Shown piece by piece: positions 2,705 through 41,678 of a stretch of DNA of 64,000 bases. Every line of letters starts with the position of its first letter. Positions within the stretch are counted from its first letter, which is position 1. The position numbers were made by a program, and so were the translations under genes. The notes under the pieces are model-generated. The model searched no databases. It was not told where the DNA came from and worked only from the letters and a program-made list of their open reading frames with translations. The stretch is from the NCBI GenBank assembly GCA_043228905.1, contig JBHGNT010000007.1, positions 14,198,001-14,262,000 of the forward strand, in the 5' to 3' direction. Source of the DNA: Azolla caroliniana. Taxonomy: Eukaryota; Plantae; Polypodiophyta.

Positions 2705-4561
2705 TGTCGTGTGGTTTTTCACACACGATATGAAAACTAGTAAAATAATTATTTACGATTAGCTTAATATATGGATATAGAAAGATAGATGTGCTCAAGA
2801 GCTTCATAGCGTATTTTACTACGCATAAAACAAATAAACAAGTATCAAGTTATGTGAGTGTGAAGTTTTAAGAAAAGAAAAGAAAAGACAAAACTGTGAG
2901 ATATCCCACATAGATAGGACAACATTGGAACCCATAATATATAAGGGAAACCAAAACATATTCATTCTACCAATGTGTGGAGCATAGAATGTTCAAGGTG
3001 ACTTGGGCTACATTATGTGGTGTGCACGCTTCGGGCGTACGCGTGTGTGCATGGCTATGTGGATGTTTTCGGATGTATGCACGCATGAACGTCTTTGGAT
3101 GTATGCGCGTGTGCAAGTTTCGGGCGTACGCGTGGACGTTTCGGACGGACGCGTATGTGCAGACGAGCCCGCGCACGCGTGTGTGCGCACGCGCGCAAGC
3201 GTGGATGCGTACACTACGGCGCGGTCGAGACTTTTGCGCGCGGATTCGTACACAGTGCGGGTTGGATGTGCGCGCGCGTGGATGCGTACACTACGGTGCG
3301 GTCGGGACGCGCGCATGCGTGGATGCGTACACTACGGCGCGGTCGGGATGGGCGCGGTCAAGACGGGCGCATAGGGTTTAGGGCGCGCAAGCGTGGATGG
3401 GTACACTACGGCGCGGTCGAGACTTTTGCGCGCGGATTCGTACACAGTGCGGGTTGGATGTGCGCGCGCGTGGATGCGTACACTACGGCGCGGTCGGGAC
3501 GTGCGCATGCGTGGATGCATACACTACGGCGCGGTCGGGACGCACGCATGCGTGGATGTGTACACTACTACGCGGTTGGGACTTCTGCGCGCAAACGCGT
3601 CTATGGTTTGGTTGCGAAGCACGTACGGATTGCGCACGTGTGTGCACATGCGTGGATGCGTACACTACGGCGCGGTCGAGACTTTTGCGAGCGGATGCGT
3701 ACATGATGTGGGTTGGACGTGCGCGCACGTGGATGCTTACACTACGGCGCAGTCAAGACATTTGCGAGCGGATGCGTACACAATGTGGGTTGGACGCGCG
3801 CGCACGTGGATGCGTACACTACGGCGCGGTTGGGACGCGCGCATGCGTGGATGCGTACACTACTACGCGGTCGAGACTTCTGCTTGCGGACGCGTCTACG
3901 GTTTGGTTGCGACGCACGTACGGATTGCGCACGGGCTAAACTTTATGGATGATTGTGTCATTTGGCCGAATTATACGAACAATCGCATGCAACCAAAAGC
4001 CAAGGCCATGCAACTAAAAGTAAAAGGCATGCATCTAAAAATGGAAGCATGCAACTAAAAGGAGAGGCCAGGCAACTAAAAATAGAGGCCATCCAACTAA
4101 AAGTGGGCATGCAAAGTAACATTGGGGAGGAGGATCAACGAGGAGCTCGATATATATCCCATTTTTTCCCTCCTAGTTTTATTTTTTTCCCCTTCTTTCT
4201 TCTTCCCTCTCGGATTCGAGAAACAAATTATCTCACATATTGATATCAAACTCCTAGCTTTGTTTACTCGATCTTTCTGGTCAAAAATTATCTCTCGTAT
4301 TCTTATCGGACCACTCCTTGCATGGTTGTTGGCTCCTTTCTTTGAAAAATTAATCTCTCATTTCCATACCCAACCCATTGTAACACGATTCTCAAATTAT
4401 AAAGAATCGATTTTCTTTTGCAATAAACTAATGATTTGTCTCTCCCACTTGTCTTATGCTTAAAACTTGCTTTTGTTGTACATGTTGCTCTAAATCCTTC
4501 TAGTCCATAACCCCGGCGGTTCTACCTCACGATCCGCACATAGTGACGCATTTTCACGACA
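2705..4561 (+). repeat. 5' LTR of gypsy B (1857 bp) with GC-rich tandem array at ~3200-3870
   Basis: Direct repeat of 15896-17179; 11 copies of core GTGGATGCGTACACTACGGCGCGGTCG. Confidence 0.95.
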
Positions 4562-4569
4562 TAATTAAG

Positions 4570-4587
4570 TGGTGAACCCGACGTGAA
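4570..4587 (+). promoter_or_regulatory. Primer binding site complementary to tRNA-Trp 3' end (B)
   Basis: TGGTGAACCCGACGTGAA is the reverse complement of ...TTCACGTCGGGTTCACCA, the plant cytosolic tRNA-Trp 3' end as recalled from memory. Confidence 0.85.
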
Positions 4588-6089
4588 AGAGGCGGTAGGA
4601 AGGATATCAAGTGCAACAATGGCTTCAACAAGCGGAACTCAAGGAGAGAAATTAACGAAAGGTATGGTGTCCGTAGTGGAATACATGCTGAAGGTGAGAG
4701 ATCGAGAAGCTTTAATCGACAAAGCTGTTGATCGTACGGTCGAGATAGCTGGACAATTTGGTGGCAAGAACATCAGGGATTTTCTTGCTACCTATCGGAA
4801 CAAGATGCAACAAAGGGATGTCAACGATCTCAAACAAATTTCTAGCTTCAAACGCGTGGTGGAACCACGGATCCGTGAGCGCATCATGGAGATCCAAAGC
4901 GAGCATGCAACTTGGGCGGAGTTCGAAAAGGCACTTCTCGCCAAATACATGCTTGAAGACGCATCGCGGATGACTCGACATACGCTAATGTCTTGGATCG
5001 AGAAGAAAGGGAAGAATATGTGTGTGTCTGGAGTATATGCCGAATTTGACCAGAAGTATAACCGACTTCCGAGTGTTGATCAATGAGTTCTCGATGGAGA
5101 TAGAGTCCTACTATTCCTGAAGGCAGTGGATGCGAAAGATCGGCGTGAATTGGGTAACTTTTTGGAGGATGAAACACAACCAAATGGCTTGGTAGCGAAC
5201 TGGGTGGCAGTGAAGAAGACTTGTAGCCGTCTTGATAAGCGTCGACAATGGCAAGAGGAAACTGATATGGAGAATCCACAATCGTGGAGGAGGAATGCAC
5301 CTGTGACGATTGAGTCTAACAAGCCGATCAACAATTTTGACAAGAAAGTGATAGAGGAATCTATAATCGAAGAGCTCTCCAAGAAGTTTGAAGCGGTATT
5401 GCTGGCCAACTTAGGTCGACGCGGGCCGAAGGGAAAAGAAGCGTATAGATGTGTGTGGTGTGACCGTTTCGAACACTCGCGAAGGGAGTGCACTCCCTTG
5501 CAAGACGCAATTCGCAAGAATGTTGTCTATTTGGACAGCAACATGATCCACTTGAGTGAGACCCGAAACCCACTACGAGTGAACTTCGGAAGAGGCGGGC
5601 TGAAAAAGATTGTGGAAGAGGAAGATGCAAGGCATGTGGAAGCCATGCACTACGCCGCATCGGTGAGAATACGAGTTGGAAGAGAGAACCTAAAGACGAT
5701 CAAGCCAGGAGTTGGGTTTTGGCCAACGGTATTCGAGTGTGAAAAGAAAGGAAAAATAGATTTGGAGGATCTCAAACATGTTGATCGGAATGTGCAACGA
5801 GTAACCGGAATGTCGGATCCAGTCGACGATAACACAAGCTTTGCGGAGGTTATGTGTGACAACTATGAGGCTCTTGTCGAAAAGAAGAGGAAAAGAACCG
5901 GTGAAGAAGATGGCACCTCAAAGCGTCACAATACAAGGAATGCAAGGAAAGAAGGACAAGCCCAACCTACGCCACGAAAAGAGATAGGAGAAACAAGCAT
6001 GAAGCCTGGTGGATCGAGCCAACCTTCTCGGATGGAAGTCGATGAATCTGTGAAGAAAGGAAAGGAACGAGTGGCGTTGACTTACAAGC

Positions 6090-6847
6090 TGTTGGGATTT
6101 CGGTCCCTCCGGATGGGATGTCCGGAGATGAATGACGGCAAGCCCGGTTACGGTTACGGAACCGGATGAAGATACAGGTCCGGTGAGCGCACTCTCCGGA
6201 TGATGAAGAATACCCGGTATGAAGCCGGATGAAGAGTACCCGGATACGGATCCGGATGATGAAGTACCCGGATACGGATCCGGATGATGAAGACCCCGGC
6301 ATGAAGCCGGATGACGAAGACCTGGCTACGGAGCCGGATGACGAAGACCTGGCTACGGAGCCGGATGATGAATGTACCCGGAGAGAGATCCGGATGCGGG
6401 GACATATTTGTGAATATGTTTGCCAAGGGCCCTTGTGGCTATATTTGTAAATAGCCGGAAAGTCATATGTGTATAAATATGACTTAGGGCAAACAGTTTT
6501 AGTTGCTGCTCATTTTCTGTTTTCACTTAGAGGGAGCGAAGTGAGAGCAGCCGAGAGAGAGAGAGAGTGAGAGAAACGAGGAGGTCGTTGCCTCTGTGTA
6601 TTACCGCCGCCTGTGGCGAGGACAGCGAGCTCAAGGTCGTCGCCTTGCAGCTCGCCATTGTATACTTCTCTGTATAGTGTTGGTTTGGAGTCTTGTACTC
6701 CCGTGGTTTTTCCCGTTTAGGGTTTTCCACGTTAATCCCTGTGTTATCGTGTCTCTCTCTGTGTTTCCTATTTTCTACTGCATTGATTCGCGATTTCTCG
6801 GTTGTGGCCGGAACGACGAAGGCGAATCGGAGCGTTGATTCGCAACA
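6090..6847 (+). repeat. 5' LTR of D (758 bp)
   Basis: tgttggg...cgcaaca; U3 holds ccggatga-based short repeats; tataaata at ~6472. Confidence 0.97.
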
Positions 6848-6878
6848 AAGTGGTATCAGAGCGACGGCAGTGCAGAAA

Positions 6879-9800
6879 ATGGAAGGCGGCAGCAGCGGGC
6901 AGCCGGGGATGATGGTGCTGAATGCGCAGAACTACGCCGACTGGAAGATCAAGATGGAGGATCTTCTGATTGTTCGGGACCTGTACGAACCGATTGACAG
7001 GTCGGAAATACCGAAGGGGGTACTTGAGACGGAATGGAGGCTTCTGAACCGGAAAGCCGTTGCAACCATTCGGCAATACGTCGATGTAAGTGTTCTGCAA
7101 CATGTGGCGAACGACACCAACGCATACGAGATGTGGCGGAAGCTGTCGGGCCTCTACGAGAGGAAGAATGCGTTGAACCGGACCTCCCTGATGAGGAAGA
7201 TAGTGAACCTCAAGTACCGGGACGGCGAGAGCATGGTGGAACACGTAAGCACGTTCATGGGATTCGTGAACCAGCTTGCGGCAATCAAGTTCCCGCTGGA
7301 GGATGCAATGCAAGCCATCATTCTGATGTGTACATTGCCGGAAAGTTGGGAGAACTTGGTGGTGACTCTCAGCACCTCCTGCACCGAAGATAACTTGTCT
7401 TTACAAACGGTAAAGACAAGTATTTTGAACGAAGAAGCGCGTCGGAGAGATAAAGAACCGGCCTCCGACTCGAAGGCGCTGCTTACCGAATCGGAACGGG
7501 GAAGACAATGGAACCGGAGTCCGCAAAGACGGGAGAAGTCGGGGACCCAGTCGCAGTCAAGAGGAAGACCCACATGCTTCCACTGTGGGAAGCCGGGGCA
7601 CTTCCGGAAGAATTGTCGGCATTACCGAAAAGACAACGGAGCCGACGACACCGATTCGAAGAAGTCACCGGAGCGAAATGGTGCATACCGGGGAGCCACG
7701 GACCGGAGAGGTTCGGATCGGCGAGGGCAGGACCGGAAAGGAACGACGGCACTCACGGCAAGTGAAGAGGAGATCATGCTCATTACCGAAGAGAGGGAGC
7801 TGAACCTTGCCGGAGAAGAGATGACCTGGGTGGTCGATTCCGGAGCGTCGTTCCACCTGACCCCGGAGAAGAAATACTTCTCATCCTACACAGCCGGTGA
7901 GCATGGCTGTGTCCGGATGGGAAATGAAGGTACGTGCCGGATTGCCGGCATAGGAGACGTGTGGCTGATGACATCAACCGGATGCAAGATGCTGCTGAAG
8001 GATGTCCGGCACGTTCCGGAGGTTCGATTGAACCTGATTTCGGCCGGGAGTCTAGACGATGAAGGCTACACGGGTAGTATCCGGAACGGTGTCATGAAGT
8101 TCAGCAAAGGGAGCCTGATAGTGGCTCGGGCCCGGAAGGTCAACACACTGTACCTTATGAATGCCCGGTTGTGTCCGGAAGAGTTGAACGTGGCAGCCGA
8201 CACTGCCGGTGAGCTGTGGCACAAGAGACTGTGCCACATGAGTGAGAAGGGGATGAAGAGGCTTGCAGAAGACAACCTCATTCCAGTGAAGCATGTGCAC
8301 CTGGAGAAGTGCACCGATTGCCTGGCCGGTAAACAGAACCGAACCTCCTTCCACTCAAGGCCACCGACGAGACGTAGTGCACCATTGGAGTTGGTGCACA
8401 CTGATGTGTGTCAGGTAGAAACGAAGTCACATGGCGGAGCCCAGTACTTCGTAACATTCATAGATGACCACAGCCGGAAGCTGTGGACGGCACCGCTGAA
8501 GACAAAGGACCAAGTATTGTCCGTCTTCAAAGAACTCCACGCGAGAGTGGAAAGGGAATCCGGCAAGAAGCTGAAAGCGATACGAGCGGATAACGGAGGG
8601 GAATACCGGGGGCAGTTCCAGGAGTACTGTCGCTCGAAGGGAATCCGGCTCGAGTTTACTGTGCCGAAGACGCCGGAACTGAACGGGCTGGCCGAGAGGA
8701 TGAACCGGACCATAATGGAGAGGGTCCGGAGTATGCTAGCACATGCGAAACTACCCAAGGGATTTTGGGCCGAGGCAATGTCGACGGCGACATACGTGAT
8801 AAACAGATCACCCTCAGTACCTTTGGACGGGGACACGCCGCAGAAAGTGTGGACCGGTAAGGAAGTGTCCTACCGGCACCTGAAGGTGTTCGGGTGTCTC
8901 GCATACGTGCATGTGGCAAAGGACCGGAGAGGAAAGCTAGATCCAAAGACCCGGCCATGCATATTCCTCGGTTACGGCGACGACGAGTTCGGCTACCGAG
9001 TATGGGACCCGGTCGACAAGAAGATATTCAGGAGTAGAGATATCATCTTCATGGAGGACAAGACACTCGCCGACTGGGAGTCGGAGAAGAAGATGAAGAG
9101 CTCCAAGTCGACCGGTGAGGATCAACTCTACGAGGAGCAGTCCCGACCGGCAAGGGACCGGTTAGCACTCGAGGATCCGGCCGAAGACGGTGAAGAAATA
9201 GAACCGGCCGAAGAAGATGAAAATGATACCGGAACCGGCCCCGATCCCGAAATGGATTCGGATGAAGAAGAATCGGAAGAACCGTTTACCGAAGCTCCGG
9301 AACGGAGATATCCTCTAAGAGAGAGAAGGGCCCCCCGGAGATTTCCGGAACCAGAGCACGTGCTGCTAACCGACGAAGGGGAGCCGGAGAGCTTTGAAGA
9401 AGCAAAGCATGACACCCAGAGCCGCAGGTGGTTGAGTGCCATGCAGGACGAGATGGATTCCCTGCATGAGAACCACACATATGAACTTGTGGAGTTGCCG
9501 AAAGGAAAGTGGGCACTTCGAAACAAGTGGGTGTTCAAGCTGAAACCGGAAGATGCCGGAAACCCCCCGAGATACAAAGCCAGGATCGTGGTGAAGGGGC
9601 TCCAGCAGAAGAAGGGCGTCGACTTCGACGAGATATTTGCCCCGGTAGTGAAGATGACCTCCATCCGGACGGTGCTGAGCATAGCGGCAAGCATGGACCT
9701 CGAGGTAGAACAGATGGACGTGAAGACGGCATTCCTTCACGGTGACCTCGAAGAAGAGACCTACATGCAGCAACCGGAAGGATTCGAGAAGAAAGGGAAG

Positions 9801-10952
9801 GAGCACTTGGTATGCCGGTTGAAGAAGAGCCTTTACGGACTGAAGCAGGCTCCCTGGCAGTGGTACCGAAAGTTTGACTCCTTCATGACCGATGAAGGGT
9901 ACCACAAAACGCAGTCTGACCACTGCGTGTTTGTGAAGAAGTTCGACGGAGGAGACTCTCTAATACTCCTCCTGTACGTGGACGACATGTTGATCGTCGG
10001 ACGGGACCAGGTCAAGATACGGATGCTGAAGAAGGCTCTTCACCGAACCTTCTCAATGAAGGACCTGGGTCCGGCGAGGCAAATACTAGGGATGCACATC
10101 ATCCGGGACCGGAAGAAGAAGCAGTTGTGGCTGTCACAGGAGAAGTACGTGACAAAGGTGCTTCACCGGTTCAACATGTCGGAAGCAAGACCAGTCGGGT
10201 CGACTCTCCCGGCAAACTGCAAGCTGTCCAGCAAGCAAAGCCCCAAGACAAAGGCTGAGAAGGAGGACATGATGAAAGTACCGTATGCCTCTGCCGTCGG
10301 GAGCTTGATGTACGCGATGGTGTGTACCCGACCGGACATAGGATATGCAGTCGGAGTGGTGAGCCGGTACATGAGCAATCCCGGCAAAGAGCACTGGAAC
10401 GCGGTCAAGTGGATACTCCGATACCTGAAGGGCACAGCAAACGTGTGCCTCCGATTCGGCTCCGGTAAACCCGAACTCGACGGCTTCACCGATTCGGATA
10501 TGTCGGCTGATGCGGATACCAGCCGGTCCACATCAGGGTATGTGATGACGTATGCAGGGGGAGCTGTTTCGTGGCAGTCGAGGCTGCAGAAGACGGTTGC
10601 GTTGTCAACCACGGAGGCGGAGTACATGGCGGCTGTTGAAGCCGGCAAGGAAATAATATGGATGAAGGACTTCATTAGAGAGCTCGGTATCCGGCAGGAG
10701 GAGTACCGACTCTACTGCGACAGTCAGAGTGCAATCCACCTTGCGAAGAACGCGGCCTATCACTCCCGGACGAAGCACATCCAGCGAAGATATCACTGGA
10801 TCCGGGAAAGGATAGAAGACAAGGAGTTCGTGCTGACAAAGATCCACACAGACGAGAACGGGTCGGATTTGCTGACCAAGGTGCTCACACCCGACAAGCT
10901 GGAAGCATGCCGGAAGAGGATCGGATTGGAGAGACATCCCATGCCGAAGTGA
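6879..10952 (+). CDS. Uninterrupted Gag-Pol polyprotein of copia D (~1357 aa)
   Basis: First ATG after the PBS; CFHCGKPGHFRKNC knuckle, WVVDSGASFH protease, HHCC and DDE integrase, LYVDD RT, YCDSQSAI RNase H. Confidence 0.97.
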   Translation: MEGGSSGQPGMMVLNAQNYADWKIKMEDLLIVRDLYEPIDRSEIPKGVLETEWRLLNRKAVATIRQYVDVSVLQHVANDTNAYEMWRKLSGLYERKNALNRTSLMRKIVNLKYRDGESMVEHVSTFMGFVNQLAAIKFPLEDAMQAIILMCTLPESWENLVVTLSTSCTEDNLSLQTVKTSILNEEARRRDKEPASDSKALLTESERGRQWNRSPQRREKSGTQSQSRGRPTCFHCGKPGHFRKNCRHYRKDNGADDTDSKKSPERNGAYRGATDRRGSDRRGQDRKGTTALTASEEEIMLITEERELNLAGEEMTWVVDSGASFHLTPEKKYFSSYTAGEHGCVRMGNEGTCRIAGIGDVWLMTSTGCKMLLKDVRHVPEVRLNLISAGSLDDEGYTGSIRNGVMKFSKGSLIVARARKVNTLYLMNARLCPEELNVAADTAGELWHKRLCHMSEKGMKRLAEDNLIPVKHVHLEKCTDCLAGKQNRTSFHSRPPTRRSAPLELVHTDVCQVETKSHGGAQYFVTFIDDHSRKLWTAPLKTKDQVLSVFKELHARVERESGKKLKAIRADNGGEYRGQFQEYCRSKGIRLEFTVPKTPELNGLAERMNRTIMERVRSMLAHAKLPKGFWAEAMSTATYVINRSPSVPLDGDTPQKVWTGKEVSYRHLKVFGCLAYVHVAKDRRGKLDPKTRPCIFLGYGDDEFGYRVWDPVDKKIFRSRDIIFMEDKTLADWESEKKMKSSKSTGEDQLYEEQSRPARDRLALEDPAEDGEEIEPAEEDENDTGTGPDPEMDSDEEESEEPFTEAPERRYPLRERRAPRRFPEPEHVLLTDEGEPESFEEAKHDTQSRRWLSAMQDEMDSLHENHTYELVELPKGKWALRNKWVFKLKPEDAGNPPRYKARIVVKGLQQKKGVDFDEIFAPVVKMTSIRTVLSIAASMDLEVEQMDVKTAFLHGDLEEETYMQQPEGFEKKGKEHLVCRLKKSLYGLKQAPWQWYRKFDSFMTDEGYHKTQSDHCVFVKKFDGGDSLILLLYVDDMLIVGRDQVKIRMLKKALHRTFSMKDLGPARQILGMHIIRDRKKKQLWLSQEKYVTKVLHRFNMSEARPVGSTLPANCKLSSKQSPKTKAEKEDMMKVPYASAVGSLMYAMVCTRPDIGYAVGVVSRYMSNPGKEHWNAVKWILRYLKGTANVCLRFGSGKPELDGFTDSDMSADADTSRSTSGYVMTYAGGAVSWQSRLQKTVALSTTEAEYMAAVEAGKEIIWMKDFIRELGIRQEEYRLYCDSQSAIHLAKNAAYHSRTKHIQRRYHWIRERIEDKEFVLTKIHTDENGSDLLTKVLTPDKLEACRKRIGLERHPMPK

Positions 10953-10962
10953 AGGGGGAGTT

Positions 10963-11693
10963 TGTTGGGATTTCGGTCCCTCCGGATGGGATGTCCGGAG
11001 ATGAATGACGGCAAGCCCGGTTACGGTTACGGAACCGGATGAAGATACAGGTCCGGTGAGCGCACTCTCCGGATGATGAAGAATACCCGGTATGAAGCCG
11101 GATGAAGAGTACCCGGATACGGATCCGGATGATGAAGTACCCGGATACGGATCCGGATGATGAAGACCCCGGCATGAAGCCGGATGACGAAGACCTGGCT
11201 ACGGAGCCGGATGATGAATGTACCCGGAGAGAGATCCGGATGCGGGGACATATTTGTGAATATGTTTGCCAAGGGCCCTTGTGGCTATATTTGTAAATAG
11301 CCGGAAAGTCATATGTGTATAAATATGACTTAGGGCAAACAGTTTTAGTTGCTGCTCATTTTCTGTTTTCACTTAGAGGGAGCGAAGTGAGAGCAGCCGA
11401 GAGAGAGAGAGAGTGAGAGAAACGAGGAGGTCGTTGCCTCTGTGTATTACCGCCGCCTGTGGCGAGGACAGCGAGCTCAAGGTCGTCGCCTTGCAGCTCG
11501 CCATTGTATACTTCTCTGTATAGTGTTGGTTTGGAGTCTTGTACTCCCGTGGTTTTTCCCGTTTAGGGTTTTCCACGTTAATCCCTGTGTTATCGTGTCT
11601 CTCTCTGTGTTTCCTATTTTCTACTGCATTGATTCGCGATTTCTCGGTTGTGGCCGGAACGACGAAGGCGAATCGGAGCGTTGATTCGCAACA
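10963..11693 (+). repeat. 3' LTR of D (731 bp)
   Basis: Appears identical to the 5' LTR except for one missing 27-bp unit. Confidence 0.97.
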
Positions 11694-12398
11694 CAAGCTA
11701 AGGTTGGACATAGAACAAACATCCAACTTGCGGAAGGTCCTTGAGGAGAAGGTTTTAGACAATCATGTCGACCTTACTTTGAGAGAGCTACTTGGGATCG
11801 CTAAGAAGGAGTTCCACGATACTATCGTGGACTTGATTAAGCGGAAGTGGCAACAATCGGATGAAGAAGAGGTGAAAACAAGTGCCATAACCATGGCAAG
11901 ATCCGAAGAGGAGGAAGAAGAAGTGATGGCGGACAGCCATTACTCTCGGCCTCATTGGGCAAGAGCGACAACGGAGACGCCGGTGGAGATCGGAGAGAAG
12001 AAGGAGACCGTGGTAGCCTTGATTGACCATGGTTTGGAGATCAACCTCATGTCGACCGAATTCTACAAGAAAGGAAGATGGTTGATCAACACAAACCACG
12101 GATGGAAGATACGAGCGGCAACGAAGGCCACGGAAGATGTGTATGGAGCTTGCCCCAATGTTCAAGTCACAATCGGAGATGTGGAGATGGATCAACACTT
12201 CTTCGTGCAAGACTCGGCTTCACATCCCGTCATCCTAGGACAACCATATATCACGTCGTCCCGGATGGAGACTAAGGTGTTTGATAATGGAGCGGCCTTC
12301 GCGCGAGTCAAGAGCCTTGACAATCAAAGATCTGTTCAATTCCTTACAATGCGGGCTAATCACGAAAGGAACCGTGATAGCCTTGGAGGCGAATCCTC

Positions 12399-12462
12399 GG
12401 ATTTTTAGAGCGGACTATTGAAGCGTGGGGCACAACCAGTCCAAGCAATCATAAGTCCCCAC
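12399..12462 (+). promoter_or_regulatory. -1 programmed ribosomal frameshift signal (B)
   Basis: G GAT TTT TAG, 6-nt spacer, stem1 GGACT/AGTCC, stem2 GTGGGG/CCCCAC; -1 frame is open into pol. Confidence 0.8.
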
Positions 12463-15400
12463 AAGGAAGCGAAATAAGTGGATCGCAAGGAGAAGCAACA
12501 TGTGTGACACCTAGTGGCACATGTAAACTAACACTACTCAACAAGAAGGACAAGCGTCGGATACAAGACTTCGAGAAGATGCTGAAAGAAGAAAGCATAA
12601 TCAAAGAAGAAGAATTCGTGTCTCATAATCTAGAGGAAGCCTCATTTAACGACACCATCGGCGAAATCGAGGAAGTCGTGGACTTGAGCTACCCTCACGA
12701 TCAAAATGTGATTTCGGTTAACTCTGTCAACATGTACGCTATCATCGAGGCATCTTGATGGAGGAAGCTGAAGTCAACACAAAATATAAAACGGTGGATA
12801 AGAAGATCAAGCCAGTTGCGGTTCCGCTACCGGAAGATAGCTGGCAGAAGATGAAGGAAGTTGCTAATGATCCGAGCTTAAGGGATCCAAAGGCAATAGG
12901 TCATGTCTTCACCAAAGAGACAAAAGGAAAGCTACAAGTTGGAAGGGAAGATTTCCTTCTCCCCGAAGAGGAGAGAATGTTCCGCGGAATGCTTGAGAGA
13001 CATGGGAAAGCCTTTGCCTTCTCTCCACAAGAGATTGGATGTGCCGACCTGAAGATGGTAGAGCTGATGGTGATTTTTACGGTGCCGCATGTACCTTGGA
13101 ACCTCAAGCCGATACCGGTTCCAAGAGCTCACATTCCAAAGTTGATTGAGCTTCTAAAGGAGAAGGTTAGGATGGGAATTCTTGAGCCATCCAATGCTCC
13201 CTACTCTAATAGATGGTTTACGGTGCCGAAGAAGAACGGGTCCTTACGCTTTATACAAGTTCTCCAACCGGTCAACAAGGTGATGATCCGAAATTCCGGA
13301 ATTGGTCCAAGCGTGGATGAATTTGCCGAAGCCTTCGCGGGAATATCGATCTATTCCATTGGTGATCTCTACTCGGGTTATGATCAGTTTCAATTGGCCG
13401 TCGATAGTAGAGATATAACGACAATGAGGACGCCGATCGGGTTGGTAAGGATGTGCACCTTACCCCAAGGTGCGACAAATTCCGTAGCCCACATGGTGAA
13501 TGCCATGAACAAAGTGTTGAGGGATTGTATCCCTGATATCACAATGCCCTTCTTAGACGATATTCCAATCAAAGGATGCTTGGTGGAAGAAAAAGATGAA
13601 TCGAAAGATGACGATGGTTGCCGAAGATTCGTCATCAATCATATAAAGGATAGCAAGAAGGTGTTGCAAAAGCTTGAGGATGCGAATCTCACATTTTCGG
13701 GAGAGAAGTCTGCATTCGGTCAACCAGAAATATTGGTAGTAGGACACTTATGTGGGTCTTATGGCCGGAAGCCATCTCCATTCAAGGTGAACAGTATTCA
13801 AGATATGAAAGAAGAATGTGTGTCTCAAACGGAGGTGCGAAGATTCTTGGGAGCATGTGCATTCTATCACATATGGATTCCACATTATGCCCATGTGGTT
13901 GAACCATTGTATGGACTATTAAAGAAAAGGAAGAAGTTTGAATGGGAAGATGAGCATACCTACACGATTCGAAAGCTAAAGAAACTATTATTGGAAGCTC
14001 CGGCATTGCGCAAAGCTGACTACACTGATGGTACCCCGATATATGTGACGGTGGATACGAGCCCAACCGGAATTGGATGGGTGATAAACCAAGAAGACAA
14101 AGAAAAGAATCGGTATGCAATCCGATTCGGTGCGAAGGTGTTAACCAAAAGACAAAGGAAGTATGCTCAAGTAAAGAGAGAGCTATGGGGAATAGTATCC
14201 GCGGTTAAAACCGACCGTGACTACCTTATAGGAATAGAGGTCATAATCGAAACTGACTGTCTACCTATTCTTGGAATGATATCCGGTTGTGCTACACTGG
14301 ATATTGCTATGCTGTGATGGATTGTCTATATCAAGTCCCTCAACCCCGAGATTCGGCATATAAATGGGAAGCATAATGTGGTGGCCGATATGTTGTCATG
14401 GGCGAGGTATCAAGGTGAAGAAGATTTGCACTCCGACGAAGAGGATGTTGGCCTAAACTTCTTTACGGTTTCTTGTGCTCGGGTGCTAGTAGTGTTCAAA
14501 GTAGAAGATTATGAGGGTGAATTCATTGAAATTGGCAAATACTTAAGCTCTCTTACAAAAGATGAATCATGGTCAAAGGAAGACTTCTACCGAATTAGGA
14601 AGAAGGCCTACAAGTTCTTCCTCAAAGAAGGACATCTATGGAAGTTTCCGAAGAAGAAGAATGGAACTCCACTTCAAGTGGTGTGCAAGAAATAGGATCA
14701 ACAAACACTAATTGCTGAATTTCATGATAGTGTGTGGGCAGGTCATCGTGGTATATGGGCAACATTTACAAAGCTCAAGGAGAAGTATTGGTGGCCGGGT
14801 GTTTACAAAGATGTAGCAAGCTATGTTGAAACATGTGAGCAATGCCAATTATACTCGAATATTCAACATAGGGATGAACTTCATCCGACATATCCATTAT
14901 CAATGCACTTTAATGGTTGGTAGACATAGTGGTTATGCCAATGGGATTGGGGCAAATGAAATACCTCGTGCTAGCAAGAGAGAATCTCACCAACCAAGTA
15001 GAAGGACGGGCGCTAAGGAATAAAACAACTTCGGCGGTTTGTAGGTTTCTCCTTGAAGATGTTATTTGTCGATATGGATGTGTCGGCAAAATAGTGGCCG
15101 ATAGAGGAGAATTAGATGTGAATGAAGCTAAAGAGTTCTTTTCAAGAATAGGCATCAAATTATCACTCACCATGGCATACAACCCGAACGCAAATGGGAA
15201 GGTGGAATGAGGACATAGTCCAATTGTAAAAGCTCTAGCAAAGGCTTGCGACGGCAAGATGGGAAATTGGCCACGATTACTACCTTATGCATTGTGGGCA
15301 AATAGAACTACACATAGCACGACTACGGGATATATGCTCGCCAAACTCATATTAGGACAAAAACCAATAATGCCTTTTGAGCAAAGTGTTCCTTCGTGGG

Positions 15401-15829
15401 CGTCTCTGCCATGGCAAGAGGAAATGAGTTGAGAAGACTTGCTAGCCACGAGGATTCAACAATTAGAACGAAGGCCCGAAGATGTCGAGTTGGCAATAGA
15501 ACGGTTGCGCCAAGCTCAATTCAAGAACAATGAGAATTTTGATAGAAAGCATCGTCTTCGACAAAGAAAAATTGAAGAAGGTCTATGATAGTAGTCTCGA
15601 TAATCAATATAGCACTACTCGAAAGTTCGCAAAACGATGGTTTGGCCCGTATATGGTCAAGAAAATAGAAAGCAATGCAACCTATTTTTTAGTGGAGTTG
15701 GATGGAACTCGACTTGCTTTGCAAATAGCAGGGAAGAAGATCAAGATCTTTAAGAGAAGAGAAGCCCCAAATCTTGAGATCGAAGATCTAGATGATGTAT
15801 CCTCGAACATCAAGGTTGAAGAAGAGTAA
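12399..15829 (+). pseudogene. Pol ORF2 of B (linker, RT, RNase H, integrase), entered by -1 frameshift; several stops and frameshifts
   Basis: RT LPQGATNS...FLDD; RH VTVDTSPTGIG...IETDCLP; IN GHRG...CEQC, VADRGEL, WFGPY. Confidence 0.92.
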
Positions 15830-15895
15830 TTAAAAAAGAGGAACCTCACCACAATTGGCACATACTGGTGGATGTGCAGGTTTGGTGGGGGTGAA

Positions 15896-17179
15896 TGTCG
15901 TGTGGTTTTTCACACACGATATGAAAACTAGTAAAATAATTATTTACGATTAGCTTAATATATGGATATAGAAAGATAGATGTGTTCAAGAGCTTCATAG
16001 CGTATTTTACTACGCATAAAACGGATAAACAAGTATCAAGTTCTGTGAGTGTGAAGTTTTAAGAAAAGAAAAGAAAAGACAAAACTGTGAGATATACCAC
16101 ATAGATAGGACAACATTGAAACCCAGAATATATAAGAGAAACCAAAACATATTCATTCTATCAATGTGTGGAGCATATCTAACGTTCGAGGTGACTTGGG
16201 TTGCACTATGTGATGTGCATGCTTCGGGTGTAAGCACGTGTGCATGGCTGCGTGGACGTTTTCGAATGTACATGGGCATGGCCTTCTTCGGATATACGTG
16301 CGTGTGCAAATTTCGGACGGACACGTATCTGTGCACGCGCGCATGCGTGGATGCGTACACTACGGCGCGGTCGAGACTTTTGCGCGCTGATGCGTACACG
16401 ATGCGGATTGGACGCGCGCGCGCGTGGATGCGTACACTACGGCGCGGTTGGGAAGCGCGCATGCGTGGATGCGTACACTACTAAACGGTAGGGACTTCTG
16501 CTTGCGGACGCGTCTACGGTTTGGTTGCGACGCACGTACGGATTGCGCACGGGCTAAACTTTATGGATGATTGTGTCATTTGGCCGAATTATACGAACAA
16601 TCACATGCAACCAAAAGCCAAGGCCATGCAACTAAAAGTAAAAGGCATGCATCTAAAAATGGAAGCATGCAACTAAAAGGAGAGGCCATGCAACTAAAAA
16701 TAAAGGCCATCCAACTAAAAGTGGGCATGCAAATTAACATTAGGGAGGAGGATCAACGAGGAGCTCGATATATGTCCCATTTTTTCCCTACTAGTTTTTT
16801 TTTTCCCCCCTTCTTTCTTCTTCCCTCTCCGATTCGAGAAACAAATTATCTCACATATTGATATCAAACTCCTAGCTTTGTTTACTCGATCTTTCTGGTC
16901 AAAAATTATCTCTCGTATTCTTATCGGACCACTCCTTGCATGGTTGTTGGCTCCTTTCTTTGAAAAATTAATCTCTCATTTCCATACCCAACCCATTGTA
17001 ACACGATTCTCAAATTATAAAGAATCGATTTTCTTTTGCAATAAACTAATGATTTGTCTCTCCCACTTGTCTTATGCTTAAAACTTGCTTTTGTTGTACA
17101 TGTTATTCTAAATCCTTCTAGTCCAGAACCCCGACGGTTCCGTCTCGCGATCTGCACAAAGTGACGGATTTTCACGACA
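15896..17179 (+). repeat. 3' LTR of gypsy B (1284 bp)
   Basis: Follows G-rich tract ggtttggtgggggtgaa; only 3 copies of the array core. Confidence 0.95.
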
Positions 17180-20100
17180 GCATTATCGAGGAAATCCTCG
17201 CAGATGCGTAGAAGTTGGGCAAGACCACGGAGGTCTTTAACCAAGGAATCGAGAAGTGAGGAGGTAGAGTCTGTGGTTTATGTGAGCCCTGAGACCGCGG
17301 TTTAAATAGAAAGATTAGCAAAATAAGAGAGATAGTGTAAGAGGAACATGCGTAGATACAGGCGCAGACAGATATGCTAAGAATAGCTTGCGTTCGTTAG
17401 ATAAGCTTCTATTAATCAATATATGTGCGTCATGTTGTGGATGATTACAACCGGATCAGTGCTGGTGTTCGAGCGTAGGCTCTATAGTAGTCAAATACAG
17501 AGATGAGTGGCACACATAAGGTCGATCCCCTGGCTGGGAGCACTCAGGCGTCTTACGCGAGCAGGGGAAGCACCTTCCGGTGGCACGTCGTAGGACTCCT
17601 TGTCTTCTTTTCTCTCTGTTTCCCTTTCTCCTCTCTCTCAAATTGACATCCCCAAAAATAGTTGAGGGTCGCCCCTTTTATAGCACAAGGAGCGACCATT
17701 ACAGAGCATTCATGGCCTTATCGCTTTAACTCCCTAAATTCGCTCTCCTCGTAACTCTCCCTACTTAGGCGATGTCTAAATCCCTATTAATGCTTTAACT
17801 ACCTAGTACACCTCCTTTTTCCTATGCCTAGCCCTTAGACTATCTAATTCACTTAGGGTGTGCACACCAGTGCTCCCGCGTGTTTCACATTCTTTCTACC
17901 GATGGCCCAGAATCTTCACGACATCCACCCCCACTAAACTGCACATACGCCGTTATGTGTGAGACAGCGATTTTAGTGAGGGATTCTAGGCCATCTGCTA
18001 CTCGCCCTCCCCTTTGAACTAGTCCTTTTGGCTCCCGGGTCCGGTTCTGCCTCGCTCCGCCTTTTGAAGGCCTTTATCCGCTTCCTGGCCACCGGAGTTG
18101 TCATTCGAGTCCCGTCGAGCTCCGCGAGGTGATAAGTCACATTATTGTTGACACCGATCACTACATATGGCCCAAACCATCGCTTTGCGAACTTACGCGT
18201 AGACCTATGTTGGTTTTCGAGGCTGTTGTCGTAGACTAACACCCAATCGCCTTCCTCGATCTTCCTTGGCCGGAGCCGGTGTGTCCGATCGAACCGGGCC
18301 TTGATCCGGATTCTCGCTTCTTTCACCCTTGTCGTGGCCTGCTCCACGTCTTCTGGCCTTTGCTCGACTTGCCAGATCCGGGCCGCAAGCAATTCTTCTC
18401 AGCTCATTTTGTTGGCCCAATCGATGTCATCCACGAGGCGATCGTCCGCTCTACTGGCATGATGGGTTTCTATCCGAACATTAGTTCCGCCGACATGTAC
18501 CCTGTCACCGAACTATGGGTAGTCCAGTCTCCCCATAGCGCGTAAGGGAGCAACCTCAGCCAATCGCCAACTCACCCTTCGCATGCACGTACAATGACCG
18601 TGGCCCCACTCTATCTTTCCATTTGCCTCCGGGTTGTACGCCGTTGTGAGGGATAGTTTTACGCCTAGCCGATTGAACAGTTCTTCGGCCTCTTCCGCGT
18701 CTAGCTCTCCTTGGTCAGCTACGATTTTTCCGACGCACCCATATCGGCATATGACATCTTCTATCAGAAACTTATATACTACCGCGGTGATCTTGTTCAT
18801 TAGTGCTCGGCCCTCTACCTGGTTTGTTAGGGTTTCTCTGGCTAGCACCAGGTATCGCTTCTGACCCTCTCCCATTGGCATGGTTACTAAGTCTACCATC
18901 CATTTAAAATGCACGGCTGGGGGGTAGGTTAGGTGCAGCTCGTCGTGGTGTCGAATGACCGAGTGCATCTGGCAGCTTTCGCACGTGGACACGAAGTCGT
19001 GCACGCTCTTATACATACCCGGCCACCAGTATTTCTCCTTTATCTTCTCAAATGTGGCCCATGTGCCCCGGTGTCCAGACCAAGGGCTTTCATGGAACTC
19101 TGATATTAGCTTCTCTTGATCATCCCCCCGCTCTATTACCCGGAGCGGCGCGTCGTTTCGCCTTTCCGGGACCCTCCAGATTTTCCCGTTCCGTAAGAAG
19201 TACCAGTATGTCCTTTTTGGGAGTTGTCCCGCCTCCTTCCTAGTCATCATAGGGTTCGCCGTCATAGTTTTTAGAAACCTTCCGATTAGAAGCCACTCCC
19301 CGTCGTAGTCATCTTCGTCGAACTCGTTAAGGGGCGGAGCGCTTCTCCCTTTTATCCTCATCCTTGCTGATTCGAAGAAGTCTGCGCTGACTTCTTCGTT
19401 CTCTGATACCATGATGTCCTTGTCCTTGAACCTTGCTCTAGAAAGCATATTGGCCATGGCGTTGCCTTTACCTAAGATGTGTCGTATCTCTAGGTTCAGG
19501 GACTTGATGTATGCAATCCACCTAAGCATGGCCAGGTCGGGAGTTGCGCATCCGGAGACAATACTGAGAATCGGTAGGCAGTCTGTTTCTATAATCAGTT
19601 CTATCCCGATTAGATGTTCTTTGTCGACCTTAACCGCCGAAACGATACCCCATAGCTCGCGCTTGACTTGGGCGTATCCTCGTTGTCGCTCGCTCAGTAC
19701 CTTCACACCAAACCGGATAGGGAAACGCGTGCCATCTTCGTCCTCTTGATTTATGACCCATCCAATCCTGGTCGGGTTGGTGTCCACCGTGATGTAGAAC
19801 GGAGTTCCCGGTGCGTATACTGCTTTGCGTAAAGCTGGAGCCGTGGTGAGCATTCGTTTTAGCCTCCGGACCGCCTCGGTATGCTCCTTTGTCCATTCGA
19901 ATTTCCTGCTCTTTTTTAGCAAGCCGTAGAGTGGTTCAGCGACGTGCACGTAATGAGGGATCCATATGTGGTAAAAGGCACATGCTCCTAAGAATCGTCG
20001 AACCTCCATGACGGATCCGCACTCCTCCTTCATTGCCGAGATGGCCTCTACCTCAGTCGGCGATGGCTTCCATCCGTACGACCCACATAGATGGCCCACC

Positions 20101-21329
20101 ACTAAGATCTTTGGCTGTCCGAAGGCCGACTTTTCTCTCGAGAAGGTAAGTCGCGCGCCTTCGAGCCTCTGTATTATTTTCTCGCAGTCGGAGATATGGT
20201 CGGTGACAAACCTTCGGCACCCGTCCGCACCAATTGATTCATCCTTGGTGTCCTTTGGACACCCCTTGATAGGGATGTCATCCAGGAAAGGCATGGTGAT
20301 GTCCGGAATGCAGTCCCGCAAGACTCTGTTCATTGCATTTACCATGTGTACCACCCAGTTGGTCCCTCCCTATGGTACGGTAAACATTCGAACTAGGCCG
20401 ACAGGGGTTCGCATTGTTGTGATGTCCTTGCTTTCCATGGCCAGCTGGAACTGGTCGTACCCCGAGTATATGGGCCTTCGGGCCAAGGCTTCCGCGAACT
20501 CATCGATCGACGACCCAACTCCCGTATTGTGGATGGTCACCTTGTTGACTGGTTGTAAGTCCTAGATGAAGCGCAGCGTACCGTTCTTCTTTGGTACCGT
20601 AAACCACCGATTAGAGTAAGGGGCATTCGATGGTTTGAGGATGCCCAGCTCCACCATCTGCTTAAGAAGCTCCATCAACATGGGCATGTGAGCTAACGGC
20701 AATTGAATCGGTTTGAGGCTCCATGGCACGTGCGGCACGGTAAAGATCACCATTTGTTCGACATTGGTCGGGTCGATGCACCCGATCTCTCTCAGCGAGA
20801 ATGCGAAGGCTTTCCGTGCCTCTCGAGCATCCTTCTGAACCGGTCCTCTTCCGCCAGCAGTAGGAAGCTACCCCCACCGATCTTCAGTTCTCGTAACGTT
20901 TTGTCGGTAAAACGATGTCCTATGCCGGCCGGATCTCGCAAGCTCGAGTCGATAGCGACCCCCTTTATTAGTTCCCAGCTGCCCTCCGGTAAGGGAGCCA
21001 CGACGGGCTTCACCTTCCGGTCCACAATCTTGTACTTGGTGTCTACTCAAACGGCCCGATGCACCCTGGTTTTTCTTTCGAAGTCTGCAATGACTTCATA
21101 CATGTCGACCGAGTTGACCGGTATGACTCGGTCTTCGCTTAGGCCTCCTTCGACTACCTTCCCGATTTCTCCAAGGGTGTCATCAAACGAGACCGCCTCC
21201 ACGACTTCCCCAATTCCTTCGTCGTGACTCAAGGCTCCGCACGCCTTTAAGCGTATCTCGGCCACTGATGCTGGCTATGGTACATCCCTAGTTGTCGGAG
21301 AACAAAACTTTCCTCCCTATTTTACAAGA

Positions 21330-21395
21330 GTGGGGAATTTTCTGGCTATCCGGACTATCGTGGCCCCACGCCTTGATAGCCCTTTCTAAAAATCC
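21330..21395 (-). promoter_or_regulatory. -1 frameshift signal (C)
   Basis: Reverse complement: GGATTTT TAGAAA GGGCTATC aaggc GTGGGG ccac GATAGTCC ... CCCCAC. Confidence 0.8.
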
Positions 21396-23531
21396 GCCCT
21401 GTCGTTATTTCCAAGGGTGTACCGGTTCCGCTCGTGATTCTTCCGAACGGTCAAAAATTGGATGGAGTGACGGCCGTCCTAACTTTTTACCCTCGCATAG
21501 GCTGAACCATTGTCCAACACTTTCGTCTCCATTCTTGCCGCCGTGATGTATGGTTCGCCGAGGATAACCGGGTGAGAGGACGTCTCTTGCACGAAAAAGT
21601 GTTGGTTTATATCGACGTCTCCGACTCTCACCCTAACGTTCGGGCAAGGTCTATATAGTTCTTCCGTGGCTCTTGTAGCCACCCGTATCTTACACCCGTG
21701 TTTGGTGTTGATCGGCCAATTCCCCTTTTTGTAGAAGTCCATGGACATCAGGTTAATTTCGGACCCGTGGTCGATTAATGATACCACCAGTTCCTTCACG
21801 TCCCCAATACGAACAGGGGTTTTTGTAGTCGCTCTTGCCCAGTGCGGCCTAGTGTAGTGGCTTTCCCCAAGCTCGTCTTCCGCGGCCATCTCGTCGAGGA
21901 GTGTCGTCCTTACTTCAACCGGATTCTCGGGTTCCAGTTCCGTCAAGAGACACTTTCTCTTCACGAGGTCCATGATGTTGTCGTGGAATTCCCTTCTCGC
22001 TATGCCAAGCACTTCCCTAAGCGTGAGTTCTATGCGACTGTCGAGAACTCGCTCCTCTAAACCCTTCTGTAGGTTCGTTGTTTTCTCGATTTCCGAGCTT
22101 AAACGGAAGCTCAGATTCCTGCCCTTCTCCTTGTCCTGGGACCCGGTCGGAGTGGCCTCGTGCCCTTTCGCCATGCTTCAGGTGTCATACCTCCCCGAAG
22201 GGCCCTCTCCCTTGGTTTTCCCCGCTCGCCTTTCGTCGATCAGGGCCTCGTAGTTCCTACATGTGGCCTCCACAAAACCGGTGCTCTCCTCAACAGGGTC
22301 ACTCCAACCGGTAACTTCGCGCACACGCTCTTGCGCGCACTCCACTTCTCCTTTCCACAACCTTCCTCCAGACAAGGTCTCGAGAACAACCGGCCAGAAC
22401 CAAGGGTTTGAATCAGGTTTCTCCGCCCTTTCGCCTACGTGGATGCCAGCCGAAGCCAAGTAGTGGACGGCTTCAACGTGTTGTGTCGCGGCTTCTTCCA
22501 TTAGCCTCTTCATGCCACCTCGTCCGAAATTCGCGTCAAGCAATCTTCGCGTGTTGCTCGCATGTATCCTGCCATTCGAGAGATAGACTACATTACTTCT
22601 GAGCACTTCATCGAGGTCAACGCAATCTCTCCGAGAATGCCCGGTGGCATCACACCATATGCACCTCTGATTGGCCGGCGGTCGTCAGTCGCGCGGCTGA
22701 CCCTCGTCGCTTCGTCGGGCCTGGGCGATCTGGAGGTCGCGCACCATCCTTGTCAGTTCTTCTAGTCTTGTGCCACCTGTAGGCCCCGCGACTACGTTTG
22801 CCGGGGGTAGGCCTAGTTTGGGCCACCTCCTCGTTTCTTCCATTCGGGTTGGTGTCAGCTCGGCTCTGGTTTCAACAACTGGTTTGGCCGGTGAGGACTC
22901 CCTTTCTTTCCAATGTCGGCGTTTGTCAATCCTATTGCATACTTCTTTGACGGTCGCCCAGAAGAGTCGTGAGACCGCGGTTGGTTTCCAGAAGAAGACC
23001 CACGCTTTCCCGGACGTGCGAGTCAAACGACGTAACGAAAAACAGGATTTTGCTCGTTTTGAGCACGGTTCGGTCCAATCTAGAGAGCCACGTAAACCGT
23101 GACTCGAACTCCTAGAGGAGCGCCGAAGCGTTTTGACCCTTGTCAGGGCTGTTGACCCAATCCATAAAGTCCTTTCTCAATAGTCGGAGTGAGTCATCAT
23201 AGTTGTATCTTTCGAGAACTTCCTCCGCGAACTCCGCCCAATCACGGCAGCCCGCTTGTATTTCGGTCATCTCTGTATGGATGTCTAGCGTCACGACCCG
23301 GGGAAACCTTGTCAGTTGTCTATCCTCGGGTATATTCCTCATCTGCATCTCAGATTTGTAGGCCTCTAAGTAACTCATGGCGTCTTTTCCACTGAACCGG
23401 CCTATCTTGTCGACCGTTGCTTCTATGGCCTTGTCGAGGGCACTCGCGCCCTCGCGAGCGCTAACCAGGCGGTCTACCGCCATTGCTTCTACAAGTTCGC
23501 TCCCTCTCATTTTCAGATTCCTTTGCCGCCC

Positions 23532-23549
23532 TTCACGTCGGGTTCCCCA
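23532..23549 (-). promoter_or_regulatory. tRNA-Trp PBS of C (1 mismatch)
   Basis: Reverse complement TGGGGAACCCGACGTGAA, 4 nt from the LTR. Confidence 0.8.
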
Positions 23550-24302
23550 AATATGTCGAGGAAATCCTCGCAGATGTGTAGAAGTTGGATAGAACCACGG
23601 GGGTCTTGAACCAAGGAATCAAGAAGTGAGGAGGTAGAGTATGTGGTTTACGTGAGCCCTGAGACCACGGTTTAAACAGAAAGATTAGCAAAATGAGAGA
23701 GATAGTGTAAGAGGAACATGCGTAGACACAGGCGCAGACAGATATGCTAAGAATAGCTTGCGTTCGGTATATAAGCTTCTATTAATCAATATATGTGTGT
23801 GGTGTTGTGGGTGATTACAACTAGATCAATGCCGGTGTTCGAGCATAGGCTCTACAGTAGTCAGATACAGAGATGAGTGGGCACACAGAAGGTCGATCCC
23901 CTGGCTAGGAGCACTCGGGCGTCTGACGTGAGCAGGGGAAGTGCCTTCCGGTGGCACGTCATAGGACTCCTTGTCTTCTTTTCTCTCTATTTCCCTTTCT
24001 CCTCTCTCTCAAATTGACATCCCCAAAAACAGTCGAGGGTCGCCCCTTTTATAGCACAAGGAGCAACCGTTACAGAGCATTCATGGCCTTATCGCTTTAA
24101 CACCCTAAATTCGCTCTCCTCATAACTCTCCCTACTTAGGCGATGTCTAAATCCCTATTAATGCTTTAACTACCTAGTACACCTCTTTTTTCCTATGCCT
24201 AGCCCTTACACTATCTAATTCACTAGGGGTGTGCACTAGTGCACACCAATGCTCCCGCGCGTTTCACATTCTTTCTACCGATGGCCCGGAATCTTCACGA
24301 CA

Positions 24303-24783
24303 TTGTCTGTCGGCTGCAAAGGAGTTTCAACTCTCATGCTCTGATACAATGTGAAAGTTAGCATGCGGAAACTTTGACAAAACCGGTTTAGCCAGGTAGC
24401 GACAGAGAATAAACACAAGTTCAATGGAAGCTTGAGAGTACTTAGCATACACGGGAGAGACAGAGAGAGAGCAGAACATAAAACTCAATTAAGAAATAAC
24501 AATCCTCTGTCCATAGAATGTGCTCAGAGAGCCCTTTTATACAAGTCCATAAAGGACTGACAAAAGTACTAACAGGTACTTCAATGCTCATACGAGCAAC
24601 TAACACTAACTCCCAAAAATATGCCTACGTACTAGGCTGGATCCGTAGGCCTCTAACGGCCTACCAATTTCAATCCAATCTTGCTCTCTGATCCGGCTCC
24701 TAGTTCCGGATATCATCCGAACACCGATCCGGCTCTTGCTTATTCAGCCGATCCGGATCCCGGTTGAGCTTGCTCGCTCAACA
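24303..24783 (-). mobile_element. 5' end of copia A: 5'UTR, tRNA-iMet PBS (24338-24349, 1 mismatch) and 5' LTR (24350-24783)
   Basis: gctctgatacaa is the reverse complement of TGGTATCAGAGC with one change, next to a TG...CA LTR homologous to the LTRs at 26770 and 29636; separated from the gag start (2652) only by inserted B and C. Confidence 0.8.
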
Positions 24784-38702: not shown

Positions 38703-38720
38703 TGGTGAACCCGACGTGAA
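38703..38720 (+). promoter_or_regulatory. tRNA-Trp PBS of E
   Basis: TGGTGAACCCGACGTGAA, 4 nt after the LTR. Confidence 0.85.
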
Positions 38721-40258: not shown

Positions 40259-40957
40259 TGTCGTGCCCTTCGGCTCCGGATCGTTTCGTGAGTCGGGTGG
40301 GAACCGCCGAGGTTTTTGACTAGGAGGAAGAGGAATACAACTTAAGGCTAGTTATGAATAGTGGAAAGAGAAGTAAGATAGCAATCTCGTGAATCCCACG
40401 AGTTTAGTGTAATTAAAACAATATTTAGATTATAAGAGCAATTAGATGGCAAAATTCGAGAATCCCACGAATATATTAGATTGATCAAAACTTGTATATT
40501 AATCAACAACCTTATACATATTTCTCTCCTCCTTATATAAAGATGGAAGAGGCTAAGCATGGCTTCATGCTTTTTCACCTAAAGTGTCCATGCACACTAA
40601 ATGTGCATGTGATGCTTTGTCATTTCCTAAATATAGGGCTCATGCACGCTAGATGTGCATGAGTCACTTTTAATGGCATGTGTAAATAAAATATTTACAC
40701 TCTAAAGAATACATGATTTTTACCTTTTAATAAAGGTATGTGTAAGGCCTTATGCGTATTAAATCTATATTTATAATACTAGAGATAAGTTATTACAATG
40801 GTAAAGTTGGGATTTATTTACGTGGAGGTGCATGGATCGAATCTTGCCCTATGCACGTGATAAATTCTTTTGATATATTATTTATTTATTTATATGTATC
40901 TAAAATCGGATATATTATTTTATGGTTTTCACGTAGTGTGTGGAATACACTACGACA
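40259..40957 (-). mobile_element. Solo LTR M of an E-related family inside the gag of E; TSD CCGT
   Basis: Reverse complement begins tgtcgtagtgtattccacacactac (E LTR: tgtcgtagtgtaatttacacactac); CCGT at 40255-40258 and 40958-40961. Confidence 0.9.
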
Positions 40958-41614: not shown

Positions 41615-41678
41615 GGATTTTTAATGCGGACTGTTGCGGAGTGGGGAAGTGATAGTCTGAGAAGCCCTGATACCCCAC
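41615..41678 (+). promoter_or_regulatory. -1 frameshift signal (E)
   Basis: G GAT TTT TAA; stem1 CGGACTGTTGC/GTGATAGTCTG; stem2 GTGGGG/CCCCAC; -1 frame is ORF 41624. Confidence 0.8.

Follow-up and report, generated by a model that had tools for sequence, protein, structure and literature searches.

In Rous sarcoma virus (RSV), an alpharetrovirus, the protease lies in the gag frame. Its -1 shift falls at the end of gag and comes with a pseudoknot (PMC5009743, PMC3542737), the protease is named among the GagPol products (PMC5009743), and G_GA and G_GU heptamer starts, spacers of 5-9 nt and H-type stimulators are established for -1 frameshifting (PMC5009743). On plant ribosomes, dianthoviruses and umbraviruses (for example PEMV RNA2) use the heptamer G_GAU_UUU with a stop close behind it, and their stimulator is a bulged hairpin plus long-range pairing (PMC5009743). 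Plant retrotransposons are described as mostly single-ORF, with the Gag:Pol ratio set by splicing (PMC5580714), and according to the 2003 survey by Gao et al., as reported in PMC5009743, plant elements with separate frames had pol only in +1. Overlapping plant gag-pol frames are also known from Tcn1, Selgy and the sireviruses, but there the overlap lies between GAG and PROT (PMC5009743, PMC6317226). The ORF order GAG-PROT followed by RT-RH-INT occurs in Ogre and Retand of the Tat clade, of which Ogre has a spliced spacer, Retand a single in-frame stop and both an aRH (PMC6317226). In the available part of the REXdb classification no lineage has GAG-PROT overlapping RT-RH-INT, and the ORF organisation of the lineage Phygy, known from P. 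patens only, is entered as ND (PMC6317226).

The gypsy lineage described here is represented by three copies in a window of 64,000 nucleotides, which is the whole stretch of Azolla caroliniana DNA that was analysed (contig JBHGNT010000007.1, positions 14,198,001 to 14,262,000, forward strand). It shares G_GAU_UUU and the nearby stop with the dianthoviruses and umbraviruses, but the stimulator predicted here is a local H-type pseudoknot. The likeness to RSV is one of analogy, not of membership: these are env-less plant Ty3/gypsy elements with G_GAU_UUU, a predicted two-stem pseudoknot of ~50 nt and a linker of ~130 residues. The ORF order is that of Ogre and Retand, but aRH, a spliced spacer and a single in-frame stop, the traits of those Tat elements, were not found in the lineage, which has a -1 overlap with a heptamer and a predicted pseudoknot; Pfam searches of five pol proteins gave neither a chromodomain nor an additional RNase H family. 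A first-pass annotation of the window had been aware of no description of such recoding for plant LTR elements. Gag-PR as an ORF of its own is already found in Ogre and Retand (PMC6317226), so that only the -1 overlap with heptamer and pseudoknot at the Gag-PR/pol junction appears to be new for plants. The available text of PMC12786077, PMC5580714, PMC7466625, PMC11963269, PMC3542737 and PMC3248453 mentions no such signal, and a full-text literature search found none described, an earlier mention being possible in subscription papers or Repbase, which lay outside its scope.

Three window copies and their protease-pol junctions

The window contains plant-type LTR elements nested in one another, among them three gypsy elements of one lineage (B, C and E) whose protease regions are 72-75% identical to one another. 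They show the LTRs, the primer binding site (PBS) and the domain order PR-RT-RH-IN of Ty3/gypsy elements, and all three are broken, decayed copies with the following features:

2705..17179, + strand: element B, gypsy LTR retrotransposon, LTRs ~2705-4561 and 15896-17179, with a nested copia in ORF1
4570..4585, + strand: PBS of B
11893..12405, + strand: 3' part of B ORF1, predicted retroviral-type aspartic protease with D-H-G motif and D-F end
12399..12408, + strand: B heptamer G_GAU_UUU and ORF1 stop UAG
12412..12462, + strand: B predicted pseudoknot, stem 1 12412-12419/12435-12442, stem 2 12425-12430/12457-12462
12722..14317, + strand: B pol fragment (RT, RNase H)
17186..24303, - strand: element C, gypsy LTR retrotransposon, LTR identity 93.4%, PBS 23534-23549
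21386..21395, - strand: C heptamer G_GAU_UUU and ORF1 stop UAG
21330..21382, - strand: C predicted pseudoknot, stem 1 21375-21382/21352-21359, stem 2 21364-21369/21330-21335
18513..20369, - strand: C pol fragment (RNase H, integrase)
37885..45971, + strand: element E, gypsy LTR retrotransposon, LTR identity 97.6%, PBS 38703-38718
41615..41624, + strand: E heptamer G_GAU_UUU and ORF1 stop UAA
41627..41678, + strand: E predicted pseudoknot, stem 1 41627-41637/41649-41659, stem 2 41641-41646/41673-41678
42161..43192, + strand: E pol fragment (RT), in the -1 frame at the E heptamer

The LTRs of B are 95.6% identical over their last 840 nt, its target site duplication (TSD) is 4 nt long (GCAT/GCAT), and its PBS is presumably of the tRNA-Trp type. 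The copia element nested in its ORF1 (6090-11692, +) is young, with an intact ORF of 1424 codons, a 5-nt TSD (CAAGC) and LTRs identical across 729 aligned bases. Element C starts four bases past the end of the B 3' LTR, directly after the B TSD (17179-17190), and its two flanks do not match each other. Within the ORF1 region of E, an inverted LTR-like piece (40256-40862) is 76% similar to the LTR of E.

Modelling indicates that the domain at the end of ORF1 is folded as a retroviral-type aspartic protease: its AlphaFold model (mean pLDDT 72.7) matches Ddi1 and retroviral proteases (best E 1.9e-6), and its ESM neighbours are Asp_protease_2 clusters (0.96), the nearest clusters including Basidiomycota proteases. 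A sequence search of the PDB gave only a weak match to Ty3 Gag-Pol in which the CCHC knuckle was aligned (E 0.14), and for the Gag-like region of ORF1 Pfam gives DUF4100 only; RT, RNase H and integrase lie downstream of the junction. The active-site motif of the protease is D-H-G, not D-T/S-G, in 111 of the 120 listed homologues and is invariant in alignment A1. It aligns with the D-S-G of Ty3 and is unusual for a retropepsin, the activity of this one being putative.

The first-pass annotation had placed a -1 heptamer, a spacer of 5-6 nt and a pseudoknot at the end of Gag-PR in all three copies, and at this level it was borne out. G_GAT_TTT is followed in the ORF1 frame by TAG, TAG and TAA in B, C and E, the spacers measure 6, 6 and 5 nt, and the CCCCAC that matches GTGGGG in the loop lies 14, 16 and 13 nt past stem 1. 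Out of 26 GGATTT[TC] sites on both strands of the window, these are the only ones with a stop directly after them and also the three with the highest pseudoknot scores, each above 40 of 40 dinucleotide shuffles. With nested pairs only, the window copies fold unremarkably (z -0.45 to -1.15), and Rfam at gathering thresholds gave no match within the window.

Several details had to be amended. The inner TTG/CAA pairing that had been read in B is not a family pairing, as B deviates at 12436-12437 from its closest relatives and from all nine covering contigs in run X1; these private changes indicate that stem 1 of B has decayed. The same run, probably DNA, contains neither a joint nor an indel at the junction and is uninformative on splicing. 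Stem 2 is identical in B, C and E, so that the window copies alone offer no stem-2 covariation. The -1 frame is indeed open from the heptamer, but for 119, 35 and 96 codons only in B, C and E, and at the DNA level the RT frame is -1 in E, as had been annotated, and in C, but +1 in B owing to an extra indel.

Reading frames and the predicted pseudoknot in relatives

Searching longer proteins with the B protease gave 218 matches. Among the 120 listed, ORF1 homologues end in D-F-stop (64), in G-F or N-F (4), in D/G-F plus five residues (24) or in V-F plus one residue (2), and the remaining 26 have other ends and include gene models fused to pol. Named matches come from Physcomitrium, Riccia and Adiantum, each genus with at least one protein stopping at this point; the viral contigs searched contained no relative.

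The DNA set consisted of the best 80 of 169 confirmed metagenome loci. Most of these are contigs in which high-copy repeats have collapsed, taken from a single group of metagenome assemblies, and they therefore amount to 24 distinct RT sequences (drawn from 42 loci with at least 560 open pol codons, two loci being dropped for a motif miss) and not to 80 independent loci. A slippery heptamer lies within the last six ORF1 codons in 72 of the 80. It abuts the stop in most of them (62 G_GAU_UUU, 3 G_GAU_UUC) and otherwise precedes it by one codon (1 G_GUU_UUC, 2 G_GUU_UUU) or by five (2 G_GAU_UUU, 2 G_GGU_UUU), its variation across the 80 loci being limited to slip-compatible forms. Among the remaining 8 loci, four keep the signal region with a broken ORF1, and the other four have neither that region nor a downstream RT.

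Pol is open for at least 900 codons in 34 loci, where it lies in -1 and is open from the heptamer in 32, lies in -2/+1 in two and is never in frame with ORF1; ORF1 is open for at least 600 codons as well in 29 of the 34. A single continuous ORF, which had been named in advance as evidence against recoding, was thus seen in none of these loci, and the covariation that was to be sought across relatives is present in both stems. Upstream of the heptamer, the -1 frame is blocked within a few codons in most loci. All three stop codons occur, in some families inside stem 1, and the distance from heptamer to stem is mostly 5-6 nt despite the shifting stop. Since the stop varies in identity and position and the heptamer-to-stem distance holds, the heptamer is the probable active site. 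In the pol search (120 listed of 372 matches), the only proteins joined to a protease by the motif test were Riccia gene models. One protein of 1374 aa (P0221), with DUF4100 and RT matches, was not placed by the motif test and is possibly a continuous ORF1-pol copy.

The RNA structure 3' of the heptamer, at a spacing within the canonical 5-9 nt, is a predicted and covarying one. A de novo H-type search of the 72 nt after the heptamer in 33 non-redundant sequences, with 40 shuffles each, returned the same H-type topology in 31, with 30 scoring above all 40 shuffles; the two that lacked it are decayed loci. Of 4886 other windows in 24 elements, no more than 16 reached such a score, and the first 44 columns of the junction alignment are nearly gap-free. 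With nested pairs only, folding regained stem 1 in five of six sequences and was significant for some only.

Stem 1 was scored on 32 hand-picked rows (alignment A2), from which the decayed loci L060, L071 and L072 and near-duplicates had been excluded. There, 92.7% of cells are paired, against 21-44% in slid registers, and double-sided changes occur at 7 of 9 pairs (9 of 500 shuffles) with 30 double-changed cells in total (0 of 500 shuffles). Several pairs have changed more than once when mapped on the RT tree, and 4 of 192 cells are unpaired at the eight core pairs. As stem 2 slides in register, each loop was scored against its own and other families' 3' segments: cognate arms gave -13.6 and swapped arms -11.4 kcal/mol (0 of 100000 permutations), where the shuffle and permutation controls for both stems ignore relatedness and the structure was derived from the same sequences. 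Clear sequence swaps of stem 2 are found in L025, L059, L061, L074 and L079, and in L051, L069, L078 and L017 this stem is just 4-5 bp long.

Selection was estimated from 11 element pairs with no member shared between pairs. Synonymous divergence (pS) is 0.20 over stem 1 and its loop versus 0.55-0.74 downstream, and dN/dS over the pseudoknot is about 0.84. The -1 peptide that had been noted behind the heptamer in the window is conserved, but with synonymous change suppressed in this way its conservation is mostly an RNA effect and does not count as independent evidence. Further downstream, codons 24-130 of the -1 frame have a dN/dS of 0.30-0.42 (RT: 0.01-0.10), which suggests that the linker is translated in the pol frame as soon as the pseudoknot has been passed and argues against an intron or reinitiation. 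This stretch of ~130 pol-frame residues before the RT-adjacent region (L001:3974-4370 and homologues) is under purifying selection without a Pfam match, and may be an uncharacterised transframe domain.

Probable frameshifting and its alternatives

From these data, pol is very probably made by pseudoknot-stimulated -1 frameshifting after the protease. ORF1, with its Gag-like region, zinc knuckle and protease, would end at the conserved slippery heptamer, and the H-type pseudoknot 5-6 nt downstream would cause a minority of ribosomes to slip back by one base into the pol frame. By tandem slippage, every ribosome would yield Gag-PR and the few shifting ones Gag-PR-linker-RT-RH-IN, and the protease would presumably release RT and IN. 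The division into Gag-PR and a recoded RT-RH-IN had been proposed from the window alone and is now supported by frames, covariation and selection in relatives; I infer structure formation, the ribosomal shift and its efficiency from sequence.

An Ogre-like intron over the junction could instead remove the stop and join Gag-PR to pol, with the structure modulating splicing. Gene models in Riccia and Physcomitrium do bridge the junction and place protease and pol in one protein, but their junctions disagree from model to model, in intact loci the -1 frame carries no stop between heptamer and RT, and protein selection acts on the linker from about codon 24 onwards. The sole conserved GT/YAG pair spanning the stop would cut out 163-190 nt, which is 1 mod 3 and leads into the wrong frame; this candidate intron would also delete the C-terminus of the protease, and its U content is only 21-28%. 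Splicing is therefore very improbable, and I hold it no more credible that a separate pol arises by termination-reinitiation or internal initiation, with the structure keeping the ribosome near the stop. An AUG does overlap the stop in E and L018, and a pol-frame AUG precedes the ORF1 stop by a few codons in L059 and L063, but the first pol-frame Met is unconserved (codon 3 to 111) and protein selection acts on the linker ahead of most such AUGs. Reinitiation would also leave both the conservation of the heptamer and its fixed spacing to the stem unexplained.

A stop followed by a compact pseudoknot is also the arrangement of MLV (PMC3542737), and the structure could stimulate a gammaretrovirus-like readthrough of the ORF1 stop. 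This can be practically discounted: the zero frame closes within 3-64 codons wherever enough sequence follows, none of the 34 long pol ORFs is in frame 0, and both identity and position of the stop vary. Readthrough was rejected on the frames, a conserved intron on the open, selected linker and the frame of the candidate intron, and a conserved AUG on the scattered first Met.

I take the conserved putative recoding signal at the protease/RT junction of this plant retrotransposon lineage to be real. With pseudoknot-stimulated -1 frameshifting, the lineage would provide a canonical -1 signal in an unusual place, the protease/RT junction, and fill an 'ND' entry in the classification of plant LTR elements, and the recoding junction would explain the introns that gene predictors have invented there. 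Dozens of natural pseudoknot variants that covary would further become available for work on plant ribosomes and could be tested in Physcomitrium.

A candidate -2 sub-clade and the place of the lineage

The two loci with pol in -2/+1, L059 and L063, represent sister families (100/100 support) whose RTs have diverged under purifying selection (pS 0.55, pN 0.063). At L059:2835-2907 and L063:2497-2569, AG_GUU_UUU is followed by one more codon and the stop, and the spacer of 5 nt is one nucleotide shorter than in the -1 relatives. This ORF1 ending is fixed in 6/6 and 2/2 listed cluster members that reach the C-terminus. The -1 frame meets a stop immediately or after at most seven codons, pol is open for at least 1100 codons in the -2/+1 frame, and the predicted pseudoknot is kept, with scores among the strongest.

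The arterivirus -2 site is RG_GUU_UUU (PMC5644247), and on engineered signals a shorter spacer favours -2 (PMC3458567). This motif of the nsp2 frameshift is thus common to arteriviruses and L059/L063, but the arterivirus shift is stimulated by nsp1beta/PCBP at a C-rich motif that lies 10 nt downstream and involves no RNA structure, whereas a pseudoknot is predicted 5 nt downstream here. I mildly favour the reading that in L059 and L063 the same pseudoknot drives a -2 shift on AG_GUU_UUU, and do not go further because the sequence cannot separate -2 from +1 and the nearby AUGs leave room for reinitiation. As the route to pol, a +1 shift on the U run or reinitiation is somewhat doubtful but a serious contender, since +1 and -2 yield an identical frame, P-site re-pairing after -2 is poor and a pol-frame AUG is nearby in both families. 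Against it stand the fit to the arterivirus site (PMC5644247), the spacer shortened by one nucleotide as -2 predicts (PMC3458567), the differing AUG positions in the two families and the retention of a high-scoring pseudoknot.

Taken as a whole, the lineage may be an old gypsy lineage of mosses, liverworts and ferns that has the first such -1 signal in a plant retrotransposon and a sub-clade that has switched to an RNA-structure-driven -2 shift for an essential gene, a combination that I put forward tentatively and that leans slightly towards doubt. The switch would have consisted of the loss of one base and the gain of AG_GUU_UUU and a 5-nt spacer, with the pseudoknot kept. If true, it would put the mRNA-tension model of spacer-dependent shift direction to the test in evolution, and the paired -1/-2 families would make a spacer-length rule so far based on engineered constructs (PMC3458567) testable on natural sequences.

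The lineage is probably the Phygy lineage of REXdb, to which it was likened by description and protein identity, the assignment following from the PBS, the element size, the absence of a chromodomain and the identity of L074 to P. patens proteins. A 16-nt PBS is common to B, E and many loci, with one mismatch in C, and I take it to be the tRNA-Trp site of the Phygy type. Without its insert, B measures ~8.9 kb, E 8.1 kb and C, which is slightly short, 7.1 kb, compared with 7.7-10 kb for Phygy. The protease region of L074 is 77-81% identical to P. patens proteins, and that of window-like loci about 50-68%. The Phygy TSD has the form NCGN, which B (GCAT/GCAT) does not show; E has GCAT/ACGT and C no match, and CpG decay could be the cause of these non-NCGN duplications. 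REXdb knows Phygy from P. patens only, whereas Riccia and Adiantum are among the sources of the relatives found here. No link to the fungal Ylt1 clade could be established, the literature look-up having given nothing on frameshifts, although Basidiomycota proteases are among the nearest ESM clusters. Elsewhere in the window, at 57686-59659 (+), there is an open frame of 657 codons without a Pfam match that features five 89-nt repeats.
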